A stretch of DNA of 64,000 nt from Actinomycetota bacterium. Its GTDB lineage: Bacteria > Actinomycetota > UBA4738 > HRBIN12. Location of the stretch: the NCBI GenBank assembly GCA_036390995.1, contig DASWAT010000193.1, positions 314 through 64,313 on the forward strand, given 5' to 3'. Shown here one piece after another: positions 2,751 through 64,000 of this stretch. The translations under genes were made by a program, and so were the position numbers. Numbering within the stretch: the first letter of the stretch is position 1; each line of letters begins with the position of its first letter. The notes under the pieces are model-generated. The model searched no databases. It saw nothing but the letters and a program-made list of their open reading frames with translations, and was not told where the DNA came from.

Positions 2751-4208
2751 TCACCCCCGCAGGACGGCGTCCTGCTGGAGGTCGCGGAACATCGACCGTG
2801 CAGCGGCGCCGAGCTTGATAACGCTCTGGCCGCCGATCATGCCCCCAGACCCGGGAACGACGTCGTTGCGTACGTGGGCGGCGTCGATCGAGGGCACCGC
2901 CAGGAGGAGCTCGGTCATCTGGGCCAGACTGAGGTTCGTCCGTAGGTAGCGGGCCCCCGCCACGACCCAACGCAGGAGGGTTGCGGGGTCCCTCTGGAGG
3001 TCGGCGCGCAATCCGCGCATCGCCGAGACGATGAGATGCCCCTGGTTCCAGGAACGTCCGACGTCGCCGCCCGGAGCGTCGTGGCGGTCGCGCGCGAAGG
3101 CCAGTGCGTTGCGGCCGTTCAGGCGCTTCGGCCCCCTCTGGAAGTACGCGTGGGAGGCGGGGTCGCTCATCGGATACGGGATCGTGGTTCGGATCCCGCC
3201 GATCGCGTTCACGATGCTGCTGAAGCCGTCGAACCCGGTCAAGACATAGGCGTCGATGCCGATGCCGGTCAGCTGCTCGACGGTCCGAACGGTGAGCTCG
3301 GGACCCCCGTAGACGAGGGCCGAGTTGATCTTCTGCGTCCCGGCCCCGGGGATCTGGACGTACGAGTCGCGAGGGATGCCCAGGATCGACGCGATGCCCT
3401 TGCGGGGGTTCACGCCCACGATATGCAAGGAGTCGGCACGCGCTGCACCCACGGATCGGCCGGGTCGCGCGTCGCTCCCGATCACCAGCACGAAGAGCAG
3501 GTCGTTCGACGGCAACGGCGGAGAGAGGGACGCGCGCCGCACCTTCCGCTCGATCTCCCCCACCGAGGGCATCCGGCTGCGGACGTGGAAGGAAACGATC
3601 CTCCACCGTCCGGCGATCCGGCGCAGGACGTAGTCGCCGTCCTGGCTGAGCTCGGCACGGACCCCTTCGGCGTCGGTCAGCGCCACGCCGGCGAACGTCA
3701 TCTTCGCCACCGCGGTCACGGGATGCCCACCACGATCGAGCAGGAACCGCACGCCCAGCCGAGCCCGCCGCGGCCGCACCGCGGACAACCGCGTCGCGAG
3801 CTTGCCGAGCGTCAACTCCTGGAGATCCCGGCGGACGCCCTCGCGAACATCCCGGGCGAAGAGACGGTAGAGGGCGGAGAACCGGCCCTCGTCCCACCGG
3901 TCGGGATCGACGAACCCGATCGAGTAGAGCCGGGTCATGGTTCGCCGGATCGCGGCCGCCGGCGTGCGGAGCCGGCGTGGGCGAACGGGCCCCTGCACGC
4001 GATCACCCTGCACACGGTGCAGATCCACCGTGAGTCGGAACCGACGTGCTGTGGAGGCAGGCGACGTGGCCGACGAGGATCCCAGCGAGGACGGCTGCCC
4101 CGCGGAGCCCGATCCATCACGAAGGACGAGCCAAGCGCCGCCGGCAACCAGCAGAGCGGCTACGAAGGCCGATCCGCCGAGCAGCCATCCGCGCCGGCCG
4201 TTCCTCAC
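2751..4208 (-). CDS. LytR-CpsA-Psr (LCP) family glycopolymer transferase with N-terminal TM and an extra domain
   Basis: IGSDAR, RADSL, IPRDSYV, KINSAL, ALAFARDRH and DVGRSWNQ LCP motifs in the C-terminal half. Confidence 0.88.
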   Translation of the reverse strand: MRNGRRGWLLGGSAFVAALLVAGGAWLVLRDGSGSAGQPSSLGSSSATSPASTARRFRLTVDLHRVQGDRVQGPVRPRRLRTPAAAIRRTMTRLYSIGFVDPDRWDEGRFSALYRLFARDVREGVRRDLQELTLGKLATRLSAVRPRRARLGVRFLLDRGGHPVTAVAKMTFAGVALTDAEGVRAELSQDGDYVLRRIAGRWRIVSFHVRSRMPSVGEIERKVRRASLSPPLPSNDLLFVLVIGSDARPGRSVGAARADSLHIVGVNPRKGIASILGIPRDSYVQIPGAGTQKINSALVYGGPELTVRTVEQLTGIGIDAYVLTGFDGFSSIVNAIGGIRTTIPYPMSDPASHAYFQRGPKRLNGRNALAFARDRHDAPGGDVGRSWNQGHLIVSAMRGLRADLQRDPATLLRWVVAGARYLRTNLSLAQMTELLLAVPSIDAAHVRNDVVPGSGGMIGGQSVIKLGAAARSMFRDLQQDAVLRG

Positions 4209-4336
4209 GCGCTCACCGTGGCATGGAATCGCACCCGCCCAAGGCTACCCGCCGCCGCTCGCGGCAAACGGCCCATCCGACTCCCCGGAGCCGGGCCGGC
4301 CGGCCGTCCCCCGGAGTCGTGTGGGCGAGATGCAGG

Positions 4337-5086
4337 TCAGCAACCCGGATCGACCCAATCGGGTCCGGGGCCTCCGGGGACGCCCGAGCGGCGCGCGAGG
4401 CGCCGTAGTTTGCGGCGGAAGGCCTGCATGTCCCCATGCTGCCAGTCCGCGTGGGTCAGGCACCGCCACGAGTCGTACCGCTCGTGGTGGTAGGGGCTGC
4501 GCAGGATCTCCGCATGGCCGATGACGTTGCCGGCGCCGATCCCGAACCGCGCCATCAGCCACAGGGTCAACCGTAGCGCCGCCCGCAGCTCGACCCGGTT
4601 CCGGAGTATCTGCCGGTCGCTCGTCCCCACCATCTCGATCCCGATCGCCGTCCAGTTCATCCCGATGGCGTGCCGGCACCGGGCCCCCAGGTTCACGAGC
4701 TGGAAGACGGTGCCGTCGGCGTCGACGAGGAAATGCGAGCAGACGCCGGGCATCTCGTTCAGATGCCGGACGTTCGCGGCGAAATAGTTCCAGGCGCTCT
4801 GGGCCGAGGTCCCGTCCGTGTAGTGCTCCACGATGACCTGTGGGTCGACCAGGCGCCATGTGCGCCGGCCGTAGTGACGTTTCGAGTAGGCGGCCATCTG
4901 ATGCTTGCGCTTCGCGCCGAACGGGATCTTCTTCCAGATCACGGCGGGCTTCAGCGTCGAGGGCTCGACACGGTTGGCGATCGCGGTCCGGTTCGCCGCA
5001 GGGAAGGCGCGAACCTCGGGTCCCGCCATCACGAGCACCATGAGCGTGCCCATCGCGAGAGCCCGACACCCGCGGGGTGCGGTCAA
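4337..5086 (-). CDS. Secreted N-acetylmuramoyl-L-alanine amidase (Amidase_2); start uncertain (TTG 5086 or ATG 5053)
   Basis: IVEHYT, SHFLVDADG, RHAIGMN, IGIEMVG and VIGHAE zinc-amidase motifs; hydrophobic N-terminus. Confidence 0.82.
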   Translation of the reverse strand: MTAPRGCRALAMGTLMVLVMAGPEVRAFPAANRTAIANRVEPSTLKPAVIWKKIPFGAKRKHQMAAYSKRHYGRRTWRLVDPQVIVEHYTDGTSAQSAWNYFAANVRHLNEMPGVCSHFLVDADGTVFQLVNLGARCRHAIGMNWTAIGIEMVGTSDRQILRNRVELRAALRLTLWLMARFGIGAGNVIGHAEILRSPYHHERYDSWRCLTHADWQHGDMQAFRRKLRRLARRSGVPGGPGPDWVDPGC

Positions 5087-5159
5087 AGCTCGTTCACCGC
5101 CGGATCGTAATCCCGTTCGGGTCGCCTCGGAACGTGCCGAGGCGACGCCGCGAACGCAC

Positions 5160-5336
5160 ATCCAAGGCCTCGGACGACTGGTCATGGACGCCGTCGTCTC
5201 CTACCTGGAGCGAACCGCACCCCCCGGGGCCTTCGTCGGGCTCATGGCAGCCAGGGACGTGGCCCCTTCTGCGAACGCTACGGGTTCGCCTGGCGGCTCG
5301 ACGCACAGCCGGGGATGTTCCGGATCTGGTGGCAGC
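5160..5336 (+). pseudogene. 5'-truncated, frameshifted GNAT acetyltransferase remnant
   Basis: QGLGRLVMDAVVSYLERTAPPGAFVGLMAARDVAP continues after a 1-nt shift in the C-run at 5263-5266 as FCERYGFAWRLDAQPGMFRIW, resembling GNAT motifs A and B. Confidence 0.62.
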
Positions 5337-6161
5337 TCAGGCCATCGCTGGGGAATCCGACGACGCCGGGGACCCCGACGACCTCGAAGGCGCCGCCCGT
5401 TGGAGACGACGAGCCACGACGAACCCCGCGATCACCAGGCCGATACACAGGTACTGCGCACCGGTCAGACCGAGGACCGTTCTGTCGTAGGCGCGAAGGA
5501 AGTCCGTGAGGAACCGCTGGACCCCGTACCAGAGCAGGAACGTGACGGTGAGCCAACCCGGTCGGATACCTTTGCGGCGCAACCAGAACATCAACCCGAT
5601 CAGCGGCAGGAGCAGGAGGAGTTCGTACAGCGCGGTGTTGTGGATGTGGGCGCCGATGGGGATGGGACCCTCCCTCGTGATGCCGCCGAGGTAGTGGACC
5701 GCCAGCGGGAACGAGGTCGTCCCGCCGAGGTGCTCTCCCACCGAGTAGCAGCCGATCCGGCCGATCGCGAGACCCGGCGCGAGCCCCAGCACGACGCCAT
5801 CGGCCAGGACGAGCCCCGGCACCTCGGGAGGGCGCCGGAGCCACCACACGACGACGGCGACCGCGGCGATGAACCCGCCCGAGAACTCCAGCCCTCCCTC
5901 CCAGACCGCGACCACGGCCCACGGCCGCGAGACGTAGTCGCCCAGGTGCGCGGCCACGAACAGGAGTCGGGCGCCGACGAACCCGAGGATCAGGATCCAC
6001 CACGCGAGCGTGCCCAACCGCTCCGGGTCCAGGCCGTTCCGACGGCCGTGACGGATGAAGACGAGCGAACCCACCAGCATGGCGAGACCCACGAACATCC
6101 CGAACGTGTGGAGCGTGACGGGACCGACCTGGACCGTGGGGAAGGTTCGATACGGGATCAT
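5337..6161 (-). CDS. lgt: Prolipoprotein diacylglyceryl transferase (GRIGC variant)
   Basis: GARLLFV, WEGGLEFSGG, GLAIGRIGC, HNTALYE and RFLTDFLR motifs; multiple TMs; ATG at 6161. Confidence 0.85.
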   Translation of the reverse strand: MIPYRTFPTVQVGPVTLHTFGMFVGLAMLVGSLVFIRHGRRNGLDPERLGTLAWWILILGFVGARLLFVAAHLGDYVSRPWAVVAVWEGGLEFSGGFIAAVAVVVWWLRRPPEVPGLVLADGVVLGLAPGLAIGRIGCYSVGEHLGGTTSFPLAVHYLGGITREGPIPIGAHIHNTALYELLLLLPLIGLMFWLRRKGIRPGWLTVTFLLWYGVQRFLTDFLRAYDRTVLGLTGAQYLCIGLVIAGFVVARRLQRAAPSRSSGSPASSDSPAMA

Positions 6162-52972: not shown

Positions 52973-53739
52973 GCGACGTCGTCGTCCCCCGCCCAGCGGC
53001 ACCCGCGGCGACGCATGCCAGGATGCGCCCGGCGCCCACGGGGTGGAGCCCATCCCGGGTCGGCGGGGGTCTGGTCCTCGGCGCCTGGGCGACGCTGTTC
53101 TGGTTCCTCCTCCTGTCCGGACGGGACAACCTGTACCTGTCCACTCGCACCAGCTGGGTCGTCCCGGTCGGGGCGGCGCTGCTCTCCGCCGCCTCGCTCG
53201 GCCGGCTGGCCTCGGCCAGGGTGCGCGCCCCCGAGCCGCTCGGCCGGCGCGAGGCGTGGATCCTCGGGGCGATGGTGCTGCCGGTCGTGCTGGTGCTCGC
53301 GCTGCCGCCCGCGACCCTCGGGAGCTTCTCGGCCGGCAAGCGCGCAGGCTTCGCGGCCTCGGGAGTGGCCACGCCGCTCGGCGACATCGGGACCGGACAG
53401 CTGACGCTGATCGACGTCGCGGCGGCGCAGACGACGAAGCAGGGTGAGACCGCGCTGGCGAAGCGGGCGGGCGAGGCGGTGGGATTCGTCGGCTTCGTCA
53501 CGCGCTACGCCGATACGCCGGCCGACGAGTTCCTGCTGTCCCGTTACATCGTCACCTGCTGCGTCGCCGATGCCACGATCGCCCAGGTTCGCGTGGTGAA
53601 CGTCACGCCGGGCGCGTTCGCGGCGAACCAGTGGGTCGAGGTCAAGGGCACGATCTACCCGCTGGGACGCGAGGTCATCGTGAACGCATCATCGGTCGCC
53701 AGCGTGCCGCGGCCCTCACGGCCGTACCTCACGCCCTGA
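52969..53739 (+). CDS. TIGR03943 / YcgQ-like (DUF1980) membrane protein
   Basis: LYLSTR, GFVGFV, RYIVTCCVADA, QWVEVKG and PSRPYL. Confidence 0.88.
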   Translation: MSDVVVPRPAAPAATHARMRPAPTGWSPSRVGGGLVLGAWATLFWFLLLSGRDNLYLSTRTSWVVPVGAALLSAASLGRLASARVRAPEPLGRREAWILGAMVLPVVLVLALPPATLGSFSAGKRAGFAASGVATPLGDIGTGQLTLIDVAAAQTTKQGETALAKRAGEAVGFVGFVTRYADTPADEFLLSRYIVTCCVADATIAQVRVVNVTPGAFAANQWVEVKGTIYPLGREVIVNASSVASVPRPSRPYLTP

Positions 53740-54199
53740 CGGCGCGCCGCCCAGACCCGGCGTTCCGGACGGAACACGCGGTGCACAAGCCGAAGATGTC
53801 CGCCTGATGCGTGGACACGGTGAAGCCTCGCCGCCGGGCGGCCGCGTTCGCCCACCCCTCGATCTCACACGAAGGGATCTCGACCACCAACCCGCACCGC
53901 TCGCAGATCAGGTGATGGTGGTGGCCCGGATCGCAGAGCTTGTAGGAGAGCTCGCCCTCGCCGGCCGGGAAGGTTCGAGCGTACCCGGCTTCCTCGAGGG
54001 CCTGCAGCGTTCGGTACACGGTGGCCAGGCCCGGGCCCGTGCTGCGACGCGAGAGCGCAGCGTGGAGCGCCTGCGCGGTGATCGGCCGCCGCGACCGCTC
54101 CAGAGCCTCGACGATCGTTTCCCGCTGGCGGGTGACCCGGAGGCCGGCAGCGGACAGCATCGTCTGCGGATCGGCCACGAGGCCCCCCGGGCGCGTCAC
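53729..54199 (-). CDS. zur: Fur-family regulator, probably Zur (start 54199 or 54178)
   Basis: LRVTRQR, LATVYRTL, HHHHLICERC and FGLCTAC; last gene of the znu operon. Confidence 0.8.
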   Translation of the reverse strand: MTRPGGLVADPQTMLSAAGLRVTRQRETIVEALERSRRPITAQALHAALSRRSTGPGLATVYRTLQALEEAGYARTFPAGEGELSYKLCDPGHHHHLICERCGLVVEIPSCEIEGWANAAARRRGFTVSTHQADIFGLCTACSVRNAGSGRRAVRA

Positions 54200-55026
54200 G
54201 AGGCCACCGTTCGTGGATGCCGCCGCGCCGCCCGGCGTCCGAGGACCGCGGCGAGAACGAACACCACCGCCGAGGTGAGCACGATCGTGCCGCCCGGCGA
54301 CACCTCGCCCTGCACGAGCGCGATCACCAAGCCGACGATGGCCGAGAAGAGCCCGGCCGTCGCAGCCCAGAACATCGAGCCGCGGAACGAGTGCGCCAGC
54401 CGGGAGCCGGCGGCCACCGGAACGACGAGCAGGGACGCGATGAGGAGCAGCCCCACAACGCGCATGCCTGCCGCGACCAGCAGCGCAGTGAGGACCACGA
54501 GCAGCACATTCAGCCGGTCCACCGGCAGCCCCGACGCCCTGGCGGTCTCTTCGTCCAGAGCCACCGCGACGAGCTCCTTGTAGAAGACCGCGGTGAACGT
54601 CACCACCACAGCGCACAGCGCCGCGATGGCCGCGACATCGCCCCACGTGATGGTGAAGATCGAGCCGAACAGCACTCCCTGGACCGACGCCGTGAGGCCG
54701 CCGCGAGCCGAGATGATCACGAGCCCGAGCGCCAGACCCAGGTAGAAGACCAATGCGAGCGACAGGTCGCCGGCCAACCGGCCTCGCACCCGGAGCCACT
54801 CGAGGCCGATCGCGCCGATCACCGCGATGGCCAGCGCGCCCCACAGCGGGGCGACACCGATGGCCACGCCGAGCCCTACTCCCGCGAACGCAAGGTGACC
54901 CACGGCGTCCCCGATCAGCGAGAGACGTCGCTGCACGAGGAAGCAGCCGATCACCGGCGCCGCGATCCCCACCGCCGCTCCGGCCACGTACGCCTGCACC
55001 GCCCACACCAGGAACAGCCTGCTCAT
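54196..55026 (-). CDS. znuB: Zn/Mn ABC transporter permease
   Basis: LIGDAVGH, LFGSI, LDEETARASG, VGLLLIASLL and PGGTIV. Confidence 0.85.
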   Translation of the reverse strand: MSRLFLVWAVQAYVAGAAVGIAAPVIGCFLVQRRLSLIGDAVGHLAFAGVGLGVAIGVAPLWGALAIAVIGAIGLEWLRVRGRLAGDLSLALVFYLGLALGLVIISARGGLTASVQGVLFGSIFTITWGDVAAIAALCAVVVTFTAVFYKELVAVALDEETARASGLPVDRLNVLLVVLTALLVAAGMRVVGLLLIASLLVVPVAAGSRLAHSFRGSMFWAATAGLFSAIVGLVIALVQGEVSPGGTIVLTSAVVFVLAAVLGRRAARRHPRTVAS

Positions 55027-55748
55027 GTCCTCCCCGCGTGCTGGTGATAGCGATGGTGGAACTCGTCGTGGGTGATCGGCTCGAGCCGGCCCTCCTCGAG
55101 GACCAGGATCCGTTCACACACCTCATGGAACTCGTCGGGGTCGTGCGACACGGCGACCACCGTGGCACCGGCTTCCGCCCGGCGATGGAACTCGCGGACG
55201 ACGCCCGGACGAGCGGCCGGGTCGATCCCGGTGGTCGGCTCGTCGAGCAGCAGGAGCTCCGGATCCCCCACGAGGGCGCGGGCCAGGATCGCCCGTTGCT
55301 GCTGCCCGCCCGACAGCTCGAACAGGCACTCCGCCGACAGATCGCCCAGACCGACCGCATCGATCGCGGCGTTCACCCGACGCCAGTCCGACCGGCCCAT
55401 CCGGCCGAACAGCGGCTTCGACGGCACCAGACCGGCGGCGACCACCTCGGTCACCGAGACCGGGAGGGAGGTCACCGTGCGGAGGCCCTGCGGCGCGTAG
55501 CCGATCCTTCGCAGGATGGACGGGTCGGTGGGCGAGCCGCCGAGCACCCGGACCGTTCCCGCCTCCGGACGGAGCAGCCCGACGAGGAGCCGTAGGAGCG
55601 TCGACTTGCCGCTTCCGTTCGCTCCCGCCAGGACGGCGAACTCGCCGGGCTCCAACCGGAGGTCGAGCCCGTCGAAGATCGGGGCAGCTCCGTAACCGAA
55701 CCGGAGCCCGGAGACCTCGACGGTGAGGCCCGATGCGGCGGCAGCCAT
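55023..55748 (-). CDS. znuC: Zn/Mn ABC transporter ATP-binding protein
   Basis: GANGSGKST, LSGGQQQR, LDEPTTGID and SHD; His-rich tail. Confidence 0.85.
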   Translation of the reverse strand: MAAAASGLTVEVSGLRFGYGAAPIFDGLDLRLEPGEFAVLAGANGSGKSTLLRLLVGLLRPEAGTVRVLGGSPTDPSILRRIGYAPQGLRTVTSLPVSVTEVVAAGLVPSKPLFGRMGRSDWRRVNAAIDAVGLGDLSAECLFELSGGQQQRAILARALVGDPELLLLDEPTTGIDPAARPGVVREFHRRAEAGATVVAVSHDPDEFHEVCERILVLEEGRLEPITHDEFHHRYHQHAGRT

Positions 55749-56638
55749 CACGTCCCGCACCGCAGCCCCTCCTCGAGGCTCGACAGGTTGGCTCGCATCA
55801 CCGAGAGGTAGTCGCCCGAGGTCGGGGCAGATTCGAGCGTCCCGAGCGGCAGCGCCGGCACTCCCACATCGGAGGCGACGCTCTGCCCCACCCGGCGGCC
55901 CTCGTCGGTGGCCTCGTAGAAGACGGCGGGCGCGGCAAGGCCCTGCTCGATGGCTTGGGATGCCGCCTGGATCCTGGTGGCCGACGGCTCGCTCTCGGGC
56001 GTCAGGCCCTCGATCCCCAGCTGCCGGAGCCCGTACCGTGCCGCCAGATAGCCGAACGCCTCGTGCGTGGTGACGAAGGTCGTGAATGCGCAGCTCGAGA
56101 GCTCCTTCCGGTACGCGGCGTCGAGCGAGCCGAGGGCCGAGAGCGTGGCGTCCTCGCGGTCTCGGTAGCCGGCCTCGTGCTGTGGATCGGCCGAGGCGAG
56201 CCCGTCGGCGGCGCGCCGCACGATCTGCTCCATCAGCACGGGATCCAGCCACACGTGCGGGTCGGCCGCGAGGTCCCCCTCGGTGGAGGCGAGCAGCTGC
56301 AGTCCCTTCGAGACCGCGATCACCTGCCCCTGCGCGTCCGCGACCGCGCGCTCGACGTCGGGCTGGAACCCCAGGTCCCCGAGATAGAGAACGAGGGGCG
56401 CCGTCGTGAGATCCGCGCGCTGGGCCGCGGTGAGGGTCGTGTCGTGCGCCTCCGTCCCCGGCGGGGTGAGGTCCTCCACGTCCACCCGGTCGCCCCCCAC
56501 CCGCTGTGCGACCCACGCGAGCGGGTGGAAGGCCGCGACCACCTTCATGCGGCCCTCGGAGCCTCCCGAACCCGTACACGCGGACGCTGCCAGGAGGAGA
56601 ACGAGGGTCCCACCCGTGAGCCGCCATGCCCTGGCCAT
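55748..56638 (-). CDS. znuA: Zn/Mn ABC transporter substrate-binding lipoprotein
   Basis: Lipobox ASAC; EAHD, DPHVWLDP and HEAFGYLA. Confidence 0.85.
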   Translation of the reverse strand: MARAWRLTGGTLVLLLAASACTGSGGSEGRMKVVAAFHPLAWVAQRVGGDRVDVEDLTPPGTEAHDTTLTAAQRADLTTAPLVLYLGDLGFQPDVERAVADAQGQVIAVSKGLQLLASTEGDLAADPHVWLDPVLMEQIVRRAADGLASADPQHEAGYRDREDATLSALGSLDAAYRKELSSCAFTTFVTTHEAFGYLAARYGLRQLGIEGLTPESEPSATRIQAASQAIEQGLAAPAVFYEATDEGRRVGQSVASDVGVPALPLGTLESAPTSGDYLSVMRANLSSLEEGLRCGT

Positions 56639-56655
56639 GTCGCGAAAGGGTAGAC

Positions 56656-58454: not shown

Positions 58455-58877
58455 TCAACTCCCCATCATCCCGCCGGGACCGTAGCCATCCATCATGCTG
58501 CCGGGACCGTAGCCACCCATCATGCCCGGGCCCGGGCCGAAGCCGCCGACCTGGCTCATGTGCTCGCGCATCTGGTCCGTCATGTGCTGCCTGATCTGGT
58601 CGCGGTCCTGGTTGCCCAGCTGCTGCTGCATCTGCTCGTGGAGGCGGTCGCACTGCGCCGCGAACTCCGGACCCATATGCTCCCGCATCTGCTCCATCCA
58701 CGCCGAGTCGTGCATCGCGTCCATCGCGGCCCACCAGTCGGAGGAGTCGCCGCTCGAGAACGTCGCGTTCATGGCTTGTCCCGCGGGCACCCTGGGTCCG
58801 GAGCCGAAGGCGAACCCGAGCGTCAGGGCGACGCCGAGCCCGATCACCGCTCCGACTGCGATCCACCGTGTCTTCAT
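58455..58877 (-). CDS. Secreted/anchored Met/His/Gln-rich protein with GYGPGxMM repeats
   Basis: N-terminal hydrophobic segment, AMDAMH, EHM motifs; RBS AAAGGAG. Confidence 0.78.
   Translation of the reverse strand: MKTRWIAVGAVIGLGVALTLGFAFGSGPRVPAGQAMNATFSSGDSSDWWAAMDAMHDSAWMEQMREHMGPEFAAQCDRLHEQMQQQLGNQDRDQIRQHMTDQMREHMSQVGGFGPGPGMMGGYGPGSMMDGYGPGGMMGS
58464..58544 (-). repeat. Three 27-nt coding tandem repeats (G-Y/F-GPGxMM-G/D)
   Basis: CATCAT units recur at 58464, 58491 and 58518. Confidence 0.75.
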
Positions 58878-60301
58878 GGTCGTTCTCCTTTCATCGCCCC
58901 CACAGTAGCCGTGCCGTGTGAAGGGCCGGTGAAGACCACACGCGGCGGCGATGAAGCCCCCGGGACACGGACCGTGAAGATCGTCCCTCGGCCGAGCTCG
59001 CTCGCGACCTGCAGGTCGCCACCGTGAGCCTGGACCAGCTCCCGAGCCACGGTAAGCCCGATGCCGGAGCCACCGGCCCTGGAGCTCCGGCCACGGAAGA
59101 ACCGATCGAAGACGTGTGGCAGCTCGTCCGGCGGGATGCCCGGGCCGGTATCGGCCACGGTGATGACCGCGTCGTCGTTGTCGACGCCAAGGCCCAAGCG
59201 CACCTCCCCGCCGGGCGGCGTGAACTTCAGCGCGTTGGACAGCAGGTTCGTGACGATCTGACGGATACGCGTCGCGTCGGCCTCCACGACGACCTCGGCC
59301 AGATCCGCCGCGAGGCGGACATCCTCGGCCTCGTACGGACCGGCGAACTCCAAGGCCGCCTCCTCCAGGAGGGGCCGCAGCTCCAGCCTCTGCCGAACGA
59401 GGGAGAACCCGGCTGCCTCGGCGGACGCGAGCGTCTCCAGGTCGGCGACCAGTCCCTGGAGCCGGAGCGTCTCCTCGTGCAGCGAGGCCATCGACGCCGA
59501 CGACGGCTCGACGACGCCGTCCTGGATCCCCTCGACCTGTGTGCGGAGGATCGTGAGCGGCGTCCGGAGCTCGTGCGCCACGTCTGCCGCGAAGGCCCGG
59601 CGCAGTCGATCCTCCTCCTCGATCGTGTCCGCCATCGAGTTGAAGGCACTCGCCATCTCGCCCAGCTCGTCGGCCGCCTCGAACTCGACCCGCGTGGACC
59701 GGTCTCCGGCAGCGAGCGAGCGGGCCGCGCGCGTGAGCTCCCGCGCCGGCGCCGTCGCTCGACGGGCCAGGACGAAACCGAGCGCCAGCGCAACGAGACC
59801 GGCGAGGATCCCGCCTACGAGCAGCAGCCGGTTGACCGAGGAACGGAATGCCTCGTCCTGCGGGAGCAGGCCGGGCCGGGGGAGCCGCATCACGACCGTT
59901 CCCACAACCGAGCTGCCGACCCGGACGGGCAGCCGCTGCTCGGGACCCAGGGGCCCGCTTCCCATCATCCGCCGGTGCACGGCCGCCATCGCGCTTCCGA
60001 CCGCACCGGTCGAGGTCCATACGGTACGACCGCTCATATCCAGCAGCCGCACCGTTCCGCCGTCCATGAGCGCCATCGGGGCAAGGGAGTTCAGGTCCTC
60101 GCGGTCCCAACCGTCCATCCTCGCGTACGAGTCGGTCAGCGCGGCAAGCAGTTGCTGCTGATGGGCGGCCTGCTGATCCGCGAGGTAGCTCGTGAACCGC
60201 GTGCCGAACGCGAGGTTCACGAGGATCGCAGTGATCGCGGCCGCGGCCACGCCGACGCCAGCGAAGGCCGCAGCAAGGCGGAGCGCGTACGACCTACGCA
60301 T
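58874..60301 (-). CDS. HAMP-domain sensor histidine kinase (BaeS/CopS-like)
   Basis: Two TMs, HAMP (DELGEMASAFNSMA), AHELRTPL, NLLSNALKF, DTGPGI and GSGIGL. Confidence 0.92.
   Translation of the reverse strand: MRRSYALRLAAAFAGVGVAAAAITAILVNLAFGTRFTSYLADQQAAHQQQLLAALTDSYARMDGWDREDLNSLAPMALMDGGTVRLLDMSGRTVWTSTGAVGSAMAAVHRRMMGSGPLGPEQRLPVRVGSSVVGTVVMRLPRPGLLPQDEAFRSSVNRLLLVGGILAGLVALALGFVLARRATAPARELTRAARSLAAGDRSTRVEFEAADELGEMASAFNSMADTIEEEDRLRRAFAADVAHELRTPLTILRTQVEGIQDGVVEPSSASMASLHEETLRLQGLVADLETLASAEAAGFSLVRQRLELRPLLEEAALEFAGPYEAEDVRLAADLAEVVVEADATRIRQIVTNLLSNALKFTPPGGEVRLGLGVDNDDAVITVADTGPGIPPDELPHVFDRFFRGRSSRAGGSGIGLTVARELVQAHGGDLQVASELGRGTIFTVRVPGASSPPRVVFTGPSHGTATVGAMKGERP
58918..58934. 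promoter_or_regulatory. GTGAAG-N5-GTGAAG direct repeat (11-bp period) with a TACTGT -10 for the Met-rich gene, inside the 3' end of the kinase
   Basis: Repeats at 58918-58923 and 58929-58934; minus-strand -10 at 58907-58902. Confidence 0.55.
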
Positions 60302-60995
60302 CTGCCTTCACTCCGAACTTGTAGCCCACCCCGGTCACGGTGATCACGAACGTCGGGTGCTTCGGGTCGTCGCCCAGCTTGCGGCGCAGGTTCTTCACGT
60401 GAGCGTCGATCGTGCGCTCGTAGCCTTCGTAGTCGTAGCCCTGAACCTTCGTGATGAGCTCGTAGCGCGAGAACACGCGGCCCGGGTGCGCGCCGAGCGC
60501 ATACAGGAGGTCGAATTCGCTCCGCGTGAGCTCGACGGGCTCGCCTCCGACGGTGACCTCGCGGGCGTCGAGGTCGATCACGAGCCCGCCTCCGACGAAG
60601 GACACGGCCCGTGAGACGCCGTTCCCGTCCCCGGAGCGTCGCAGCACAGCCTCGACCCTGGCGACGAGCTCCCGCGGGCTGAACGGCTTGACCAGGTAGT
60701 CGTCGGCCCCCAGGCGCAACCCGGCGACCCGGTCCTCCTCCGAGGCCTTCGCCGTCAGCATGATGATCGGCACGTTCGAATGGGAGCGGACCGTCCGGGC
60801 GATCTCTTCGCCGGAGAGGTCGGGGAGCATGAGGTCGAGCACGACCAGCTCGGGGTGAGCACGCTCGAGGGTCTCGAGCGCCTGCTGGCCGGAATCGGCG
60901 ACGAGGACCGCGTAGCCCTCCCGCTCCAGGTAGGAACGAACGAGATCGCGGATCTTCCGTTCGTCGTCGACCACGAGGATCGTGGCCGTTCCCAT
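60294..60995 (-). CDS. OmpR-family response regulator
   Basis: ILVVDDE, VLDLMLP, MLTAK, ADDYLVKPF, TIDAHVKNLRRKL and GVGYKF. Confidence 0.94.
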   Translation of the reverse strand: MGTATILVVDDERKIRDLVRSYLEREGYAVLVADSGQQALETLERAHPELVVLDLMLPDLSGEEIARTVRSHSNVPIIMLTAKASEEDRVAGLRLGADDYLVKPFSPRELVARVEAVLRRSGDGNGVSRAVSFVGGGLVIDLDAREVTVGGEPVELTRSEFDLLYALGAHPGRVFSRYELITKVQGYDYEGYERTIDAHVKNLRRKLGDDPKHPTFVITVTGVGYKFGVKADA

Positions 60996-61090: not shown

Positions 61091-62275
61091 TCAGTTGTCG
61101 CTTGCGCCCTGGGCGATCCACGTCACGATCAGCTGGATCTGCTCCTCGGCGAGCGGCGGCAGGGACGGCGGCATCTGCATCCCGACCGAGAGCAGGTGCT
61201 CGATGAGCTCGCTCTTCTCGGGCTTGCCGGGCACGATGACCGCCTCATTGGCCATCACGCCCTCATAGGAGTCCAGGCGGAGACCGCCGGGGGGCGGCGA
61301 ATCCTCGGGCGCCACGACATGCGGTCCGCCGTTCGCTAGGAAGATCGGAAGCACCTCGTTCGAGAAGCTGACCGGCCGCGTGAGCGGTTCCGGCATCTCC
61401 CGCATCTCCATCGCCTGACCGAGGTGGGCCACCGAGGTGCGGTGATAGCCGGCCGTGGCCGGAGGCGCCATGAGGTTGCCGTGCGTTCGCGGCGAGCGGG
61501 CCACGACGGCGACGAGCCCCGTGCCGATCGCCGCGATGCCGACCTGGGCACCGAGCGGCAGCGCGCGGGCCAGGAACTGCCGCCGGCTTTGCCCGGTCAC
61601 GGCGGCCCTCGTGGCGGGGTGCGAGCTCGGTGGCCGGGAGATCCGGAGGATCCGCACGCCGACCAGGAAGAACATCGCCCAGACGAACGCGATGACGGCT
61701 GCCAGCACCCACAGGTTCAGCCCGGGGATCCGGATGCCCGCCGATGGCGAGTACAGCTGTGTGTCACCATGGACCTCCAGGTCGACCTCCTCCATCACCG
61801 GCTCGTACCTTCCGCTCCCCGGGAAGTAAGCGGCGATCTCGTATCCGCCGGAGGTTCGGGGCCGCGTCGTGAGCGTGGCAACACCATCACGGTTCGTCAC
61901 CGCCGAGCCGATGACCATGTGCCCTTGGAACTCCTCCCCCCAGAAGGCGTCCGCCTCGAACACGATCGTCATCCCGGCGATCGGGCCCCCCCTGCGATCC
62001 GTGAGGACAGCCCGTGCGAGGACTGGTCGGCCGAGCGTGGCCTCCTTCGGAACGATCACCTCCAGGTGCGTGGCCATCGATCGCGCCGACGCGCTCGTGC
62101 CGCTCATGCCCCCGCCAGTCTCCGCGCCGGGCTCCGTAACCTGCGCCTCGGGAGGCTGCTCGTCCATGCTCCCGTGTGCAAGGGCGGCCGTCGGGACCAG
62201 CGAGAGGGCAAGCAGCGCGCCGACGACCGGAACGAGGATCCGTCGCCCCCCCGGTGTGTACGGGCGGGGTCTCAC
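61091..62275 (-). CDS. 394-aa membrane protein: signal peptide, Ig-like domain, TM, internal RR motif, TM, Cys-less PSCyt1-like cytochrome domain
   Basis: SRRQFL at 61588-61571; VSFSNEVLPIFLANGGPH..GLRLDS..IVPGKPEKSEL..QMPP..LIVTWIAQGA; GTGA-coupled to nrfD. Confidence 0.75.
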   Translation of the reverse strand: MRPRPYTPGGRRILVPVVGALLALSLVPTAALAHGSMDEQPPEAQVTEPGAETGGGMSGTSASARSMATHLEVIVPKEATLGRPVLARAVLTDRRGGPIAGMTIVFEADAFWGEEFQGHMVIGSAVTNRDGVATLTTRPRTSGGYEIAAYFPGSGRYEPVMEEVDLEVHGDTQLYSPSAGIRIPGLNLWVLAAVIAFVWAMFFLVGVRILRISRPPSSHPATRAAVTGQSRRQFLARALPLGAQVGIAAIGTGLVAVVARSPRTHGNLMAPPATAGYHRTSVAHLGQAMEMREMPEPLTRPVSFSNEVLPIFLANGGPHVVAPEDSPPPGGLRLDSYEGVMANEAVIVPGKPEKSELIEHLLSVGMQMPPSLPPLAEEQIQLIVTWIAQGASDN

Positions 62276-63639
62276 GATCCGACCACCTCCGGAGCAGCAA
62301 CGGGCAGCGGTTGGCGGTGGATCCCCTCCAGGCCCGCCTCGTGCTCGCGGATCTCCCAGATCGACAGCACGGGCACGAATCGCACGAAGACGGCGATGAT
62401 CAATCCGAACAGCGCGAACGCTCCCGCAGTGATCGCGAGCTCGACCCAGGCGGGGAAGTAGCGCGCGGGGCTCGGATACGGCATCTGCGGAACCCGCAGG
62501 CTGGCCACCACGATGATGTAGCGCTCGAGCCACATCGAGACGTCCACGAGGATGGCCGCGATCACGACGTTCCGGATGGTCCGGGCCCGTCGGAAGAGCA
62601 TCACCAGGCCCGGCACGAGCAGCCCGGCGAACACGTAGAACCAGTACAGGGGTGCGAACGAGCCGGTGAAGATCGAGCCGAGATAGACGGGCTCGTTGCC
62701 CTCGAGCTTGTAGCCCGCGGTGACGAACTCGGAGAGGTTGAAGTACAACATGATCATCGCGAGCGCCGCCATGAGGTACCCGAGGTTCACGAACTGCTGC
62801 GGCGCGATCCAACGCTCGAGGTGCAACACCCGGCGGAGGATGGCCATCACGACGATCAATGTGGCGATGCCGGAGAAGATCGCTCCTGCGACGAAGTAGA
62901 TGCCGAACACAGCCGTGTTCCACCCGGTTCGAAGCGTCATCGCGAAGATCCACGACACGACGGTGTGGACCGAGACCGCCACGAAGATGATGACGATCAT
63001 CATCAGCCCGAGCCCGCCCGCGAGGTTCGCCCGCTGCGCTGCGGAGCCGGTCCATCCGAGCGACAGCGTCCGGAAGAACCAGGCCTTGCGCCGGGACACC
63101 ACGCCGCTCAGCCGCTCTCGGCACGTGGCGAGGTCCGGGATCAACGGCAGGTAGAGGTACATGAGACTGCCGATGAAGTACGTGGAGATCGCGAAGAAGT
63201 CCCAAAGGATCGGCGAGGGCCACCGACCGTATCGCAGCACGTTCAGCATCCGGTCTGGGCGGCCGAGATCCAGGATGGGGAACAGGGCGCCCACGGACAG
63301 CGCCACCACGGTGATGAACTCGGCCATGCGCGTGATCGGCGTGCGCCATCCCGCATGGCTCACGCGAAGGATCGCCGAGATGAGCGTCCCCGCGTGACTG
63401 ATGCCGATGAAGAAGACGAAGTTCGTGATGTACAGGCCCCACATGATCTTGTTCTGGCTGGAGGCCATGCCCGTCACGGCGAGCCCGCGGCGGAGCTGGA
63501 CCGTGTAGGCGAATACCCCGAACCCGAACACGGCGAGGAACCCGAGGATCAGGAGGTAGTAGCCGGGGCGCACCTTGCGGAGCGGCCGCAGAACGGTTGC
63601 CTCGAGCTCGTCGCGGATCTCGAGTGTCTGTTCGGCCAT
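62272..63639 (-). CDS. nrfD: NrfD/PsrC/ActC-family quinol-interacting membrane subunit
   Basis: WGLYITNFVFFIGISHAG, DLGRPDR, SPILWDF, LIPDLA, VHTVVSW and WLERYIIV. Confidence 0.88.
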   Translation of the reverse strand: MAEQTLEIRDELEATVLRPLRKVRPGYYLLILGFLAVFGFGVFAYTVQLRRGLAVTGMASSQNKIMWGLYITNFVFFIGISHAGTLISAILRVSHAGWRTPITRMAEFITVVALSVGALFPILDLGRPDRMLNVLRYGRWPSPILWDFFAISTYFIGSLMYLYLPLIPDLATCRERLSGVVSRRKAWFFRTLSLGWTGSAAQRANLAGGLGLMMIVIIFVAVSVHTVVSWIFAMTLRTGWNTAVFGIYFVAGAIFSGIATLIVVMAILRRVLHLERWIAPQQFVNLGYLMAALAMIMLYFNLSEFVTAGYKLEGNEPVYLGSIFTGSFAPLYWFYVFAGLLVPGLVMLFRRARTIRNVVIAAILVDVSMWLERYIIVVASLRVPQMPYPSPARYFPAWVELAITAGAFALFGLIIAVFVRFVPVLSIWEIREHEAGLEGIHRQPLPVAAPEVVGS

Positions 63640-64000
63640 CACATCGTCCCCTGTGAGGGGGCGGTCGCCCCTGCAGACGCCGATGGCGACAGGTGCATCC
63701 GCTCGAGCTCCGCGTTGATGCGGGCCCACGGCCACTCCAGCCGGTCCTTCTTGAACTCCGGGTGTTCGACCTCCGAGTAGCCCCGCTCCTTCGCCTCGTC
63801 GTCGATCGAGATGAGCTCCCCGTGGCCCGGGATGTAGTAGACGCGAGGCTCGGTCCCAAGCTCGTCCTTGTAGCGCTGGACACCGTCCTCGTTGAGGAGG
63901 AGCTTGAGATCGACCATCTCAGCGCCGTTCGTGGCGATCTCCTCCTCGAGGTCGCCCATGTAGACGGCGTGGTGCGGGCATGCCTCGACGCAGGTCGGAA
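63639..64000 (-). CDS. 4Fe-4S dicluster protein (NrfC/PsrB-like), 3' part only
   Basis: PTCVEACPHHAVYMGD and LGTEPRVYYIP; TGATG-coupled to nrfD. Confidence 0.82.
   Translation of the reverse strand, partial: PTCVEACPHHAVYMGDLEEEIATNGAEMVDLKLLLNEDGVQRYKDELGTEPRVYYIPGHGELISIDDEAKERGYSEVEHPEFKKDRLEWPWARINAELERMHLSPSASAGATAPSQGTM

Follow-up and report, generated by a model that had tools for sequence, protein, structure and literature searches.

A conserved cysteine-free relative of cytochrome c, candidate for combined Sec/Tat export, in an NrfC/NrfD-type module of Actinomycetota

How does a bacterium export a cytochrome-c-like domain, and could that domain still hold haem, when the cysteines that would anchor the cofactor are missing? 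We address this question for a gene, here called gene X, near the end of a 64,000-nucleotide stretch of DNA from an Actinomycetota bacterium (hereafter the window; GenBank assembly GCA_036390995.1, contig DASWAT010000193.1, positions 314 to 64,313 of the forward strand). Gene X follows an nrfC-like and an nrfD-like gene, and the original prediction, made from the sequence alone, had described in its product an N-terminal signal, an immunoglobulin (Ig)-like domain, a first transmembrane helix (TM1), an SRRQFL motif, a second transmembrane helix (TM2) and a C-terminal domain with GGPH and MPP, all of which we found to be present. It had further proposed that this domain binds haem in the cytoplasm, is exported by way of twin-arginine translocation (Tat) and acts as a novel electron-transfer subunit. 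Our own reading is that X is the third subunit of a self-contained NrfC/NrfD module, with a Cys-free haem domain whose export would involve both the general secretory (Sec) and the Tat pathway, and we give this combined statement a probability of roughly 0.5.

The C-terminal domain of X scored 33.5 bits against the Pfam family PSCyt1 (PF07635, Planctomycete cytochrome C; gathering score 22), and the same family was matched by the C-terminal domains of its Cys-free homologues (26/26). Among solved structures, sequence and profile searches returned FoxE (PDB 5MAB) as the sole relative, with an E-value of 2e-6 from the single sequence and of 1.7e-9 from a profile of 26 Cys-free domains. A first profile search of the PDB (A3 alignment) had been swamped by WD40 proteins, as three of the canonical PSCyt1 sequences carry WD40 repeats, and was repeated with the domain only. 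AlphaFold2 (AF2) modelled the isolated domain as four helices (predicted local distance difference test, pLDDT, 90.2). Judged by sequence, the domain is a true homologue of the haem-binding PSCyt1/FoxE domains, in agreement with the original prediction of a cytochrome-c-type domain without Cys.

The domain reads N315-G-G-P-H319 and M366-Q-M-P-P370, canonical PSCyt1 sequences read CxxCH at the aligned place of the former, and mature X contains no Cys at all. This state is shared across the family. A word-indexed search returned 71 database homologues (43–73% identity; from metagenome-assembled genomes of Actinomycetota where named), contigs of GTDB genomes yielded 16 further relatives (down to 37% identity; Actinomycetota, Chloroflexota, a Rokubacteria bin, HR12 and a Thermoanaerobaculales fragment), and an exhaustive HMMER scan gave 16 representatives at 50% identity; all three sets kept RR, GPH and MPP and lacked Cys in the mature protein, the few members with Cys having it only in the N-terminal signal peptide. 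In total, RR, GPH and MPP were invariant in ~90 homologues across three phyla, so that the joint loss of Cys and retention of RR, His and Met anticipated by the original prediction holds family-wide, and none of the Cys-free family carries a CxxCH that would imply a sequence error. In c-type cytochromes haem is bound covalently through two Cys of CxxCH, or rarely one. Because the mature protein is without Cys in X and in ~90 homologues, X is no c-type cytochrome in the chemical sense, and the name given to a homologue at NCBI, 'c-type cytochrome domain-containing protein', is misleading for the Cys-free proteins.

Membrane proteins that use Sec and Tat in combination carry a Tat consensus before their last transmembrane domain, which is of low hydrophobicity and has positive charges behind it (Tooke et al. 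2017, PMC5449189); experiments on the Rieske, Sco3746, polyferredoxin and YkuE families have shown that such features cause release by Sec and hand-over to Tat (PMC5449189). The internal RR of the original prediction proved to be part of a full Tat consensus, placed before TM2: across the Cys-free family it was invariant and never Lys (68/68), with S/T at −1 (58/68), F at +2 (57/68) and L at +3 (62/68). TM2 was less hydrophobic than TM1 (68/68), its approximate apparent insertion energy (dGapp) was positive in every member, and the 12 residues after it held on average 1.9 positive and 0.15 negative charges (R260 and R263 in X). At the level of sequence, X thus shows every feature of dual Sec/Tat membrane proteins. 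Its predicted dual export is well supported, and it is probable that Tat is used.

An exhaustive profile search also revealed sister proteins (P0221, P0240, P0245 and others) that share the scaffold of X (signal peptide, Ig, TM1, loop, TM2 and RSPxTHxNL..GY.RT) and end in a Cytochrome_CBB3-type and a PSCyt1 domain, each with CxxCH. Three of these were located on contigs, and in all three X(c-type) came after nrfC-nrfD and before a gene for a hexahaem cytochrome c. Chloroflexi have the scaffold divided between two genes after nrfC-nrfD, one for a signal peptide-Ig-TM protein of 190 residues and one for a TM-RSPxTH-cytochrome c protein of 245 residues. X therefore unites two subunits in one chain, and what is now its 'internal' signal would once have been the N-terminal signal anchor of the cytochrome part. 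The predicted covariation was borne out by these relatives: RRx[FL][LFIV] preceded TM2 in every Cys-free sequence (69/69; mean TM2 dGapp +3.05, standard deviation 0.82), whereas none of the CxxCH-bearing relatives had it (0/26; mean −1.11, standard deviation 1.37), the energies differing at a Mann-Whitney p of 1e-13 on data that are not phylogenetically independent. Among representatives, the Tat-type configuration occurred in 16/16 Cys-free and 0/6 c-type proteins. Since the sister forms with CxxCH have a hydrophobic TM2 and no Tat consensus, loss of Cys goes together with gain of the Tat motif and a weak TM2, and the simplest reason for an exchange of Sec for Tat exactly when the thioether Cys vanish would be that loading of the cofactor has moved to the cytoplasm.

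The company that X keeps is equally constant. Directly upstream of it, nrfC and nrfD were present in every locus with enough sequence, with the order C-D-X in most loci and D-C-X in a distinct clade (L019, L024, L025, L027 and L029); this triad makes the NrfC/NrfD module, as first proposed, an obligate genomic partner of X. Across the examined loci no conserved catalytic subunit was found near X, and the only recurrent neighbours were two-component systems, either a HisKA_3 kinase with a LuxR-type regulator or a HAMP/HisKA kinase with an OmpR-type regulator; only recurrent clusters were used here, as the gene caller mis-calls some high-GC genes. One 819-residue protein of the representative library (P0095) joins NrfD and X in a single polypeptide, which is either a genuine fusion that would fit physical association of the two or a frame-merging error at the 4-nt gene overlap. 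Membership of X in an NrfCD-type module is well supported by these gene orders. We also considered whether NrfC hitch-hikes on X for export, and rejected this: in the Cys-free loci NrfC always has a canonical N-terminal Tat signal of its own, so X is not needed as its carrier.

We infer from these data the following route for X. The N-terminal signal peptide would send the Ig-like domain through Sec until TM1 halts transfer; TM2, too weakly hydrophobic and followed by Arg260 and Arg263, would be released by Sec. The C-terminal domain would then fold on the cytoplasmic side, most likely about a haem that His319 and Met368 would hold without covalent bonds, after which S-R-R-x-F-L would pass TM2, together with the folded domain, on to the Tat translocase. 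The end product would be a hairpin with both the Ig-like and the C-terminal domain on the outer face, where the haem domain could relay electrons between the iron-sulfur clusters of NrfC and an external partner, the menaquinone pool being reached via NrfD; the direction of this flow may be either. Export of a haem protein by Tat has a precedent in the DyP-type haem peroxidases. Whether the domain binds haem at all we regard as evenly balanced, with non-covalent haem the most likely reading of the Cys-free domain. Variants of class I cytochromes c with CxxCH changed to AxxAH fold as stable b-type cytochromes (PMC4451467). That X is a natural b-type cytochrome of the cytochrome-c (PSCyt1) fold, given its haem in the cytoplasm and forming the Tat-exported half of a Sec/Tat hairpin, is a tentative proposal that falls a little short of even odds.

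Several results weigh against the haem-binding, Tat-exported reading, beginning with the register of His319. The Pfam match of X begins at profile position 10–11, and CxxCH occupies positions 1–5 (calibrated on P0221). BLASTP against domain 2 of P0072 gave an ungapped alignment that reached into the conserved core, with His319 opposite the haem His of CAKCH and a loop of identical length, and MAFFT placed His319 on the CxxCH His with one gap inside CxxC. Against domain 1 of P0072, which has the commoner short loop, it fell on the first Cys; an ungapped count from the upstream VLPIF helix (canonical P-x5-C-x2-C-H) put it on the second Cys; and HMMER aligned GPH of X with the P-H directly before CTTCH of FoxE. 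Of the idea that GPH occupies the CxxCH place, the invariance of His and the absence of Cys thus stand, and it is uncertain whether His319 corresponds to the proximal His: the residue lies at or next to the canonical haem-ligand position. In FoxE, Met residues of the MPP type are distal haem ligands that cross between its two domains (PMC10654088), so a His/Met pair within the single domain of X is plausible and not guaranteed. Structural support for the expected cytochrome c fold was modest: Foldseek matched the C-terminal domain to haem c domains, best to that of hydrazine synthase (E = 0.019, probability 0.98, TM-score 0.57), with cytochrome c551, PccH and the cd1 c-domain at low probability.

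Other such points concern the switch itself. Along with its Cys residues, the family is missing the CBB3-type haem domain that comes first in the sisters, and the hexahaem gene downstream; a general decay of redox function would be compatible with these losses. The dGapp values are approximate, as they come from a position-independent hydrophobicity scale, and the classes overlap slightly, a c-type subgroup (P0230-P0236) having RR-F-x-L-like loops and TM2 values of ~0 to +1.8. Finally, the exchange of Cys for Tat may comprise only one or two events, because a neighbour-joining tree of NrfD gives three groups, namely C-D-X Cys-free, c-type plus split, and D-C-X Cys-free.

Since the Cys-free family has neither the first haem domain nor the hexahaem partner of the c-type forms, and since the register of His319 is uncertain, X might carry no cofactor and serve the NrfCD module as a Tat-exported structural or docking subunit, a 'pseudo-cytochrome'. 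Its need for Tat would then come from fast folding of the domain, or from assembly with NrfC in the cytoplasm ahead of joint export; co-export of such a complex is conceivable given the Tat signal of NrfC, and Tat substrates without a cofactor are common in Actinobacteria (PMC10924467). What makes this alternative unlikely is that ~90 sequences from three phyla show no variation in either candidate axial ligand or in the PSCyt1 core pattern as a whole, and that the Tat motif was gained exactly at Cys loss; a small helical domain free of cofactor and exportable by Sec would have no obvious need of it.

The putative His/Met site, together with the acidic His- and Met-rich tails, might instead bind Cu or Fe rather than haem, in which case the module would act on metals as an oxidoreductase linked to quinone (reducing Cu(II) or Fe(III), for example, or oxidising Cu(I) or Fe(II)) or as a metal-handling device. 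We consider this improbable. The mature N-termini of X and NrfC are indeed His- and acidic-rich (AHGDEMDE...), and in the D-C-X subgroup the domain contains a His/Glu-rich insert, but these tails and inserts are lineage-specific; invariance is confined to His319 and Met368, and a typical Cu site would need more ligands. FoxE, the nearest relative of known structure, does oxidise Fe(II), yet it does so through haem c and not at a metal site. The cupredoxin gene after X in L004, and the two-component system and Met/Gly-rich secreted protein that adjoin X, likewise favour metals, but neighbouring genes of this kind are conserved only in close relatives.

A further slim chance is that RR acts as a positive-inside signal only, with TM2 inserted by Sec/YidC and the C-terminal domain exported unfolded. 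The loop before TM2 is generally basic (mean net charge +3.3 across the family), some c-type relatives have RR-like loops, and the RSPxTH charges after TM2 are common to Cys-free and c-type proteins. Against mere charge, RR was never replaced by K (69/69 and 16/16 sequences) and lies within a full [ST]-R-R-x-F-L consensus. The predicted insertion energy of TM2 is, moreover, positive in every member and Arg follows, a combination that causes Sec release in four other families (PMC5449189). A sequencing error, frameshift or pseudogene of an ordinary c-type cytochrome can be dismissed, because the open reading frame (ORF) is intact and the same Cys-free state recurs in ~90 independent assemblies.

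Returning to the preferred reading, a Cys-free haem domain exported by Sec and Tat, X resembles known systems in part. With the described dual Sec/Tat proteins (PMC5449189) it shares the Tat consensus before a weak last transmembrane domain, the positive charges after it, a predicted Sec dependence of the earlier segments, a globular C-terminal domain placed by prediction on the outer face and occurrence in Actinobacteria. Unlike them, it has only two transmembrane domains after a cleavable signal peptide, a sizeable Ig-like domain predicted to be exported by Sec before the Tat step, and a cytochrome-c-like C-terminal domain in place of an iron-sulfur, molybdenum cofactor or metallophosphatase domain; it is not among the four described families. 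With PSCyt1 and FoxE, the latter a dihaem c Fe(II) oxidase of Rhodobacter ferrooxidans SW2, it has in common the helix-loop pattern and the motifs LRLDSY, VVPGKPE.S, MPP and WIAQGA. It differs from them in lacking CxxCH or any Cys, in having one residue fewer in the CxxC stretch and a following loop 4–5 residues longer with an invariant SPPP, and in its predicted export by Tat instead of Sec. The c-type sisters and the split Chloroflexi form share with X the position after nrfC-nrfD, the scaffold and a C-terminal PSCyt1 domain; they differ in their two CxxCH haems (CBB3-type plus PSCyt1), hydrophobic TM2, lack of a Tat consensus and the hexahaem cytochrome c gene that follows. Since other lineages have this subunit in a c-type version, the description of X as a novel electron-transfer subunit needs qualifying.

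The module too has a familiar layout. NrfABCD, DsrJOP, QrcABCD, alternative complex III and the three-gene FeS/HybB-like/cytochrome c modules (PMC10924467) likewise combine a Tat-exported 4Fe-4S ferredoxin, a cofactor-less NrfD-type quinone subunit and a cytochrome-type subunit on the periplasmic face. The X module, by contrast, lacks a catalytic molybdopterin-like subunit, a multihaem protein and a further subunit of the NrfD kind, and its third subunit has an Ig-TM-TM scaffold free of CxxCH; alternative complex III, for instance, has the pentahaem ActA, a molybdopterin-like domain in ActB, and a pair of NrfD-like subunits, ActC and ActF, whereas the X unit consists of nrfC, one nrfD and X only. 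It is thus NrfCD-type but neither Nrf, Dsr, Qrc nor alternative complex III. A review of NrfD (PMC8076601) and a paper on Rhodococcus equi treat other actinobacterial NrfD systems (Fqo/FDH), not this one.

Literature on PSCyt1 biology and on natural Cys-less or Tat-exported cytochrome-c folds, of which our coverage is incomplete, did not describe the X family and held engineered b-type variants only. These variants, the C10A/C13A form of Hydrogenobacter thermophilus c552 and a variant of Aquifex aeolicus c555, keep the c fold and His/Met ligation without thioether bonds (PMC4451467); they are laboratory mutants, much less stable than the wild type, whereas the Cys-free state of X is natural and conserved and its haem putative. 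Stable b-type cytochromes c, it has been argued, could have evolved but apparently did not in vivo (PMC4451467), and the reason for the covalent attachment of haem in cytochromes c has long been sought. The Cys-free family and its CxxCH sisters in the same operon slot form a natural matched pair for this question: a single scaffold that occurs with or without Cys, with predicted export by Sec or by Tat, and with a last helix that is hydrophobic or weak. If our reading is correct, X would speak, as a natural case, against the view that thioether bonds are needed for a cytochrome-c fold, and a whole NrfCD-type respiratory module would be independent of the extracytoplasmic cytochrome c maturation machinery. 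X would also add a fifth family, of distinct architecture, to the dual Sec/Tat membrane proteins, with a large Sec-exported domain ahead of a Tat-exported one in a single chain. In any event, the loci define an uncharacterised and widespread three- or four-gene NrfCD-type module in uncultured Actinomycetota and Chloroflexota of soil and groundwater. The features of gene X and its operon are collected in Table 1.

Table 1. Features of gene X, its product and its operon, in window coordinates (aa, amino acids of X).
Feature	Position	Strand	Basis or remark
Gene X, hairpin membrane protein of 394 aa	61091..62275	(-)	third gene of nrfC-nrfD-X operon
Sec-type signal peptide, aa 1-33, cleavage predicted between ALA and HG	62177..62275	(-)	read from sequence
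Disordered acidic Met-/His-containing linker, aa 34-65, starting at His34	62081..62176	(-)	AF2 pLDDT <50
Ig-like beta-sandwich domain, aa ~66-170	61766..62080	(-)	AF2 pLDDT 95-98
TM1, hydrophobic stop-transfer helix, aa 188-206 (more widely ~186-210)	61646..61720	(-)	approximate dGapp -2.8; AF2 helix 188-213
Twin-arginine motif S230-R231-R232-Q233-F234-L235 in basic cytoplasmic loop	61571..61588	(-)	sequence, family alignment
TM2, Gly/Ala-rich weakly hydrophobic helix, aa 239-259, candidate Tat-dependent signal anchor	61499..61561	(-)	approximate dGapp +2.9
R260-S-P-R-T-H265-G-N motif directly after TM2, two positive charges	61475..61498	(-)	conserved
PSCyt1/FoxE-like four-helix domain, aa 292-394, no Cys	61094..61402	(-)	Pfam PF07635
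G316-G317-P318-H319, invariant GPH at or beside CxxCH place; His319 candidate proximal ligand	61319..61330	(-)	alignments
M368-P369-P370, invariant MPP; Met368 candidate distal ligand	61166..61174	(-)	alignments
nrfD-like gene, quinone-interacting membrane subunit	62272..63642	(-)	Pfam NrfD 4.5e-33
nrfC-like gene, 4Fe-4S ferredoxin, 3' end, truncated by window end	63639..64000	(-)	NCBIfam NrfC/ArrB/QrcC/DsrO C-termini

Gene X is read from a GTG start at 62275 to a stop codon at 61091-61093 on the minus strand. The start overlaps the nrfD stop (GTGA), a GGAGG lies ~10 nt upstream, and homologues align with the 394-residue product from a shared start (Met-Arg-Pro); X is translationally coupled to nrfD. 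The three genes nrfC, nrfD and X overlap by 1–4 nt, the likely nrfD start being GTG 63642 or ATG 63639, which overlaps the nrfC stop (TGATG). A 930-residue ORF at 61091..63883 on the same strand, which runs across nrfD in a different frame, was rejected as an artefact of the high GC content, and it should not be annotated; very long spurious ORFs occur in several frames of the window, as is typical of DNA with 70% GC. The nrfD product gave weak DsrP/QrcD-like NCBIfam matches, far under the equivalog cut-offs for DsrP and QrcD, and the full-length NrfC orthologue in the related locus L001 carries the Tat signal MRITRRSLLQ.

In the N-terminal half of X, the A-x-A cleavage site is kept throughout the family, with A31 invariant. 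A Tat-type reading of this first signal was rejected, the RR of its n-region not being conserved and a Tat consensus being absent. The linker motif HG[DE]M is conserved among Actinomycetota members, and in most of these both X and NrfC begin the mature chain with similar His-, acidic- and Met-rich tails, A-x-A followed by HG[DE]M (window 62081..62176; L001:7718-7870; loci L006-L029), for example AHGSMDEQ in X and AHGDEMDEQ in NrfC; in Chloroflexota members the tails are absent or different in both proteins. The shared tails may bind metal or may be a common processing or assembly signal. No His, Met or Cys is conserved in the Ig-like domain, which matched Pfam Big_3_5 and Big_1 weakly, and Foldseek of the full-length model returned generic Ig folds only (macroglobulin, CARDB and SOR-type). 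The family mean of the TM1 dGapp was −1.2 to −1.3 on the approximate scale. Directly after TM2, R-S-P-x-T-H-x-N was invariant in the family and present in the c-type and split forms as well.

Within the Cys-free family, X genes of the D-C-X clade (L019, L024, L025, L026, L027 and L029) carry their His/Glu-rich insert, e.g. GEHGEPEGAHAEEEP...HGH, between LDSY..M and LVVPGKPE, with an extra His before MPP (AHRMPP). One 212-residue protein (P0116) looks chimeric, the Tat signal and first Fe-S motif of NrfC being joined directly to a Cys-free PSCyt1 domain, and is probably an assembly or deletion artefact.

Downstream of X lie an OmpR-type regulator (60294..60995) and a HAMP kinase (58874..60301), and beyond both a gene for a small secreted protein (window ~58455..58874, minus strand; L001:13395-13778) with His/Met-rich helices and a Met/Gly-rich tail ..MMGGYGPGSMMDGYGPGGMMGS. 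This protein had no Pfam match, and we assume that it resembles periplasmic stress or metal proteins of the ZraP/CpxP type; in L001 a SHOCT protein follows it. Further away, a ZnuA/ABC/ABC-3/Fur-type metal uptake cluster (window 53700..56640), syntenic in close relatives only, stands beside an ArsP_1 and DUF1980 permease pair (52-53.7 kb, by synteny with L001). Among the confident genes of the window no ORF with CxxCH was found, which says nothing on the rest of the genome.

Upstream of the operon in L001, the closest long contig, (3857-5703) are genes for a glutaredoxin-like protein, a DsbD_TM/CcdA-like membrane protein and a redoxin, with a GAF-HisKA_3 kinase and a LuxR-type regulator between these thiol genes and nrfC. 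In other bacteria such thiol-reducing systems serve cytochrome c maturation or copper tolerance. In L004, whose X (P0067) is the most divergent C-D-X member, the gene directly after X (L004:11130-11633) encodes a lipoprotein-like cupredoxin of 167 residues (Pfam Cupredoxin_1, 25.6 bits, just under the cut-off), a candidate electron partner. In c-type sister operons, NrfC (L051:4294-5355, L052:5543-6658 and L050:5471-6652) has one or two N-terminal hydrophobic segments followed by an internal RR (..DRRTAVRMVG.., ..DRRAALRLFG..), and might be N-terminally anchored or dual-targeted, unless the starts are mis-called.

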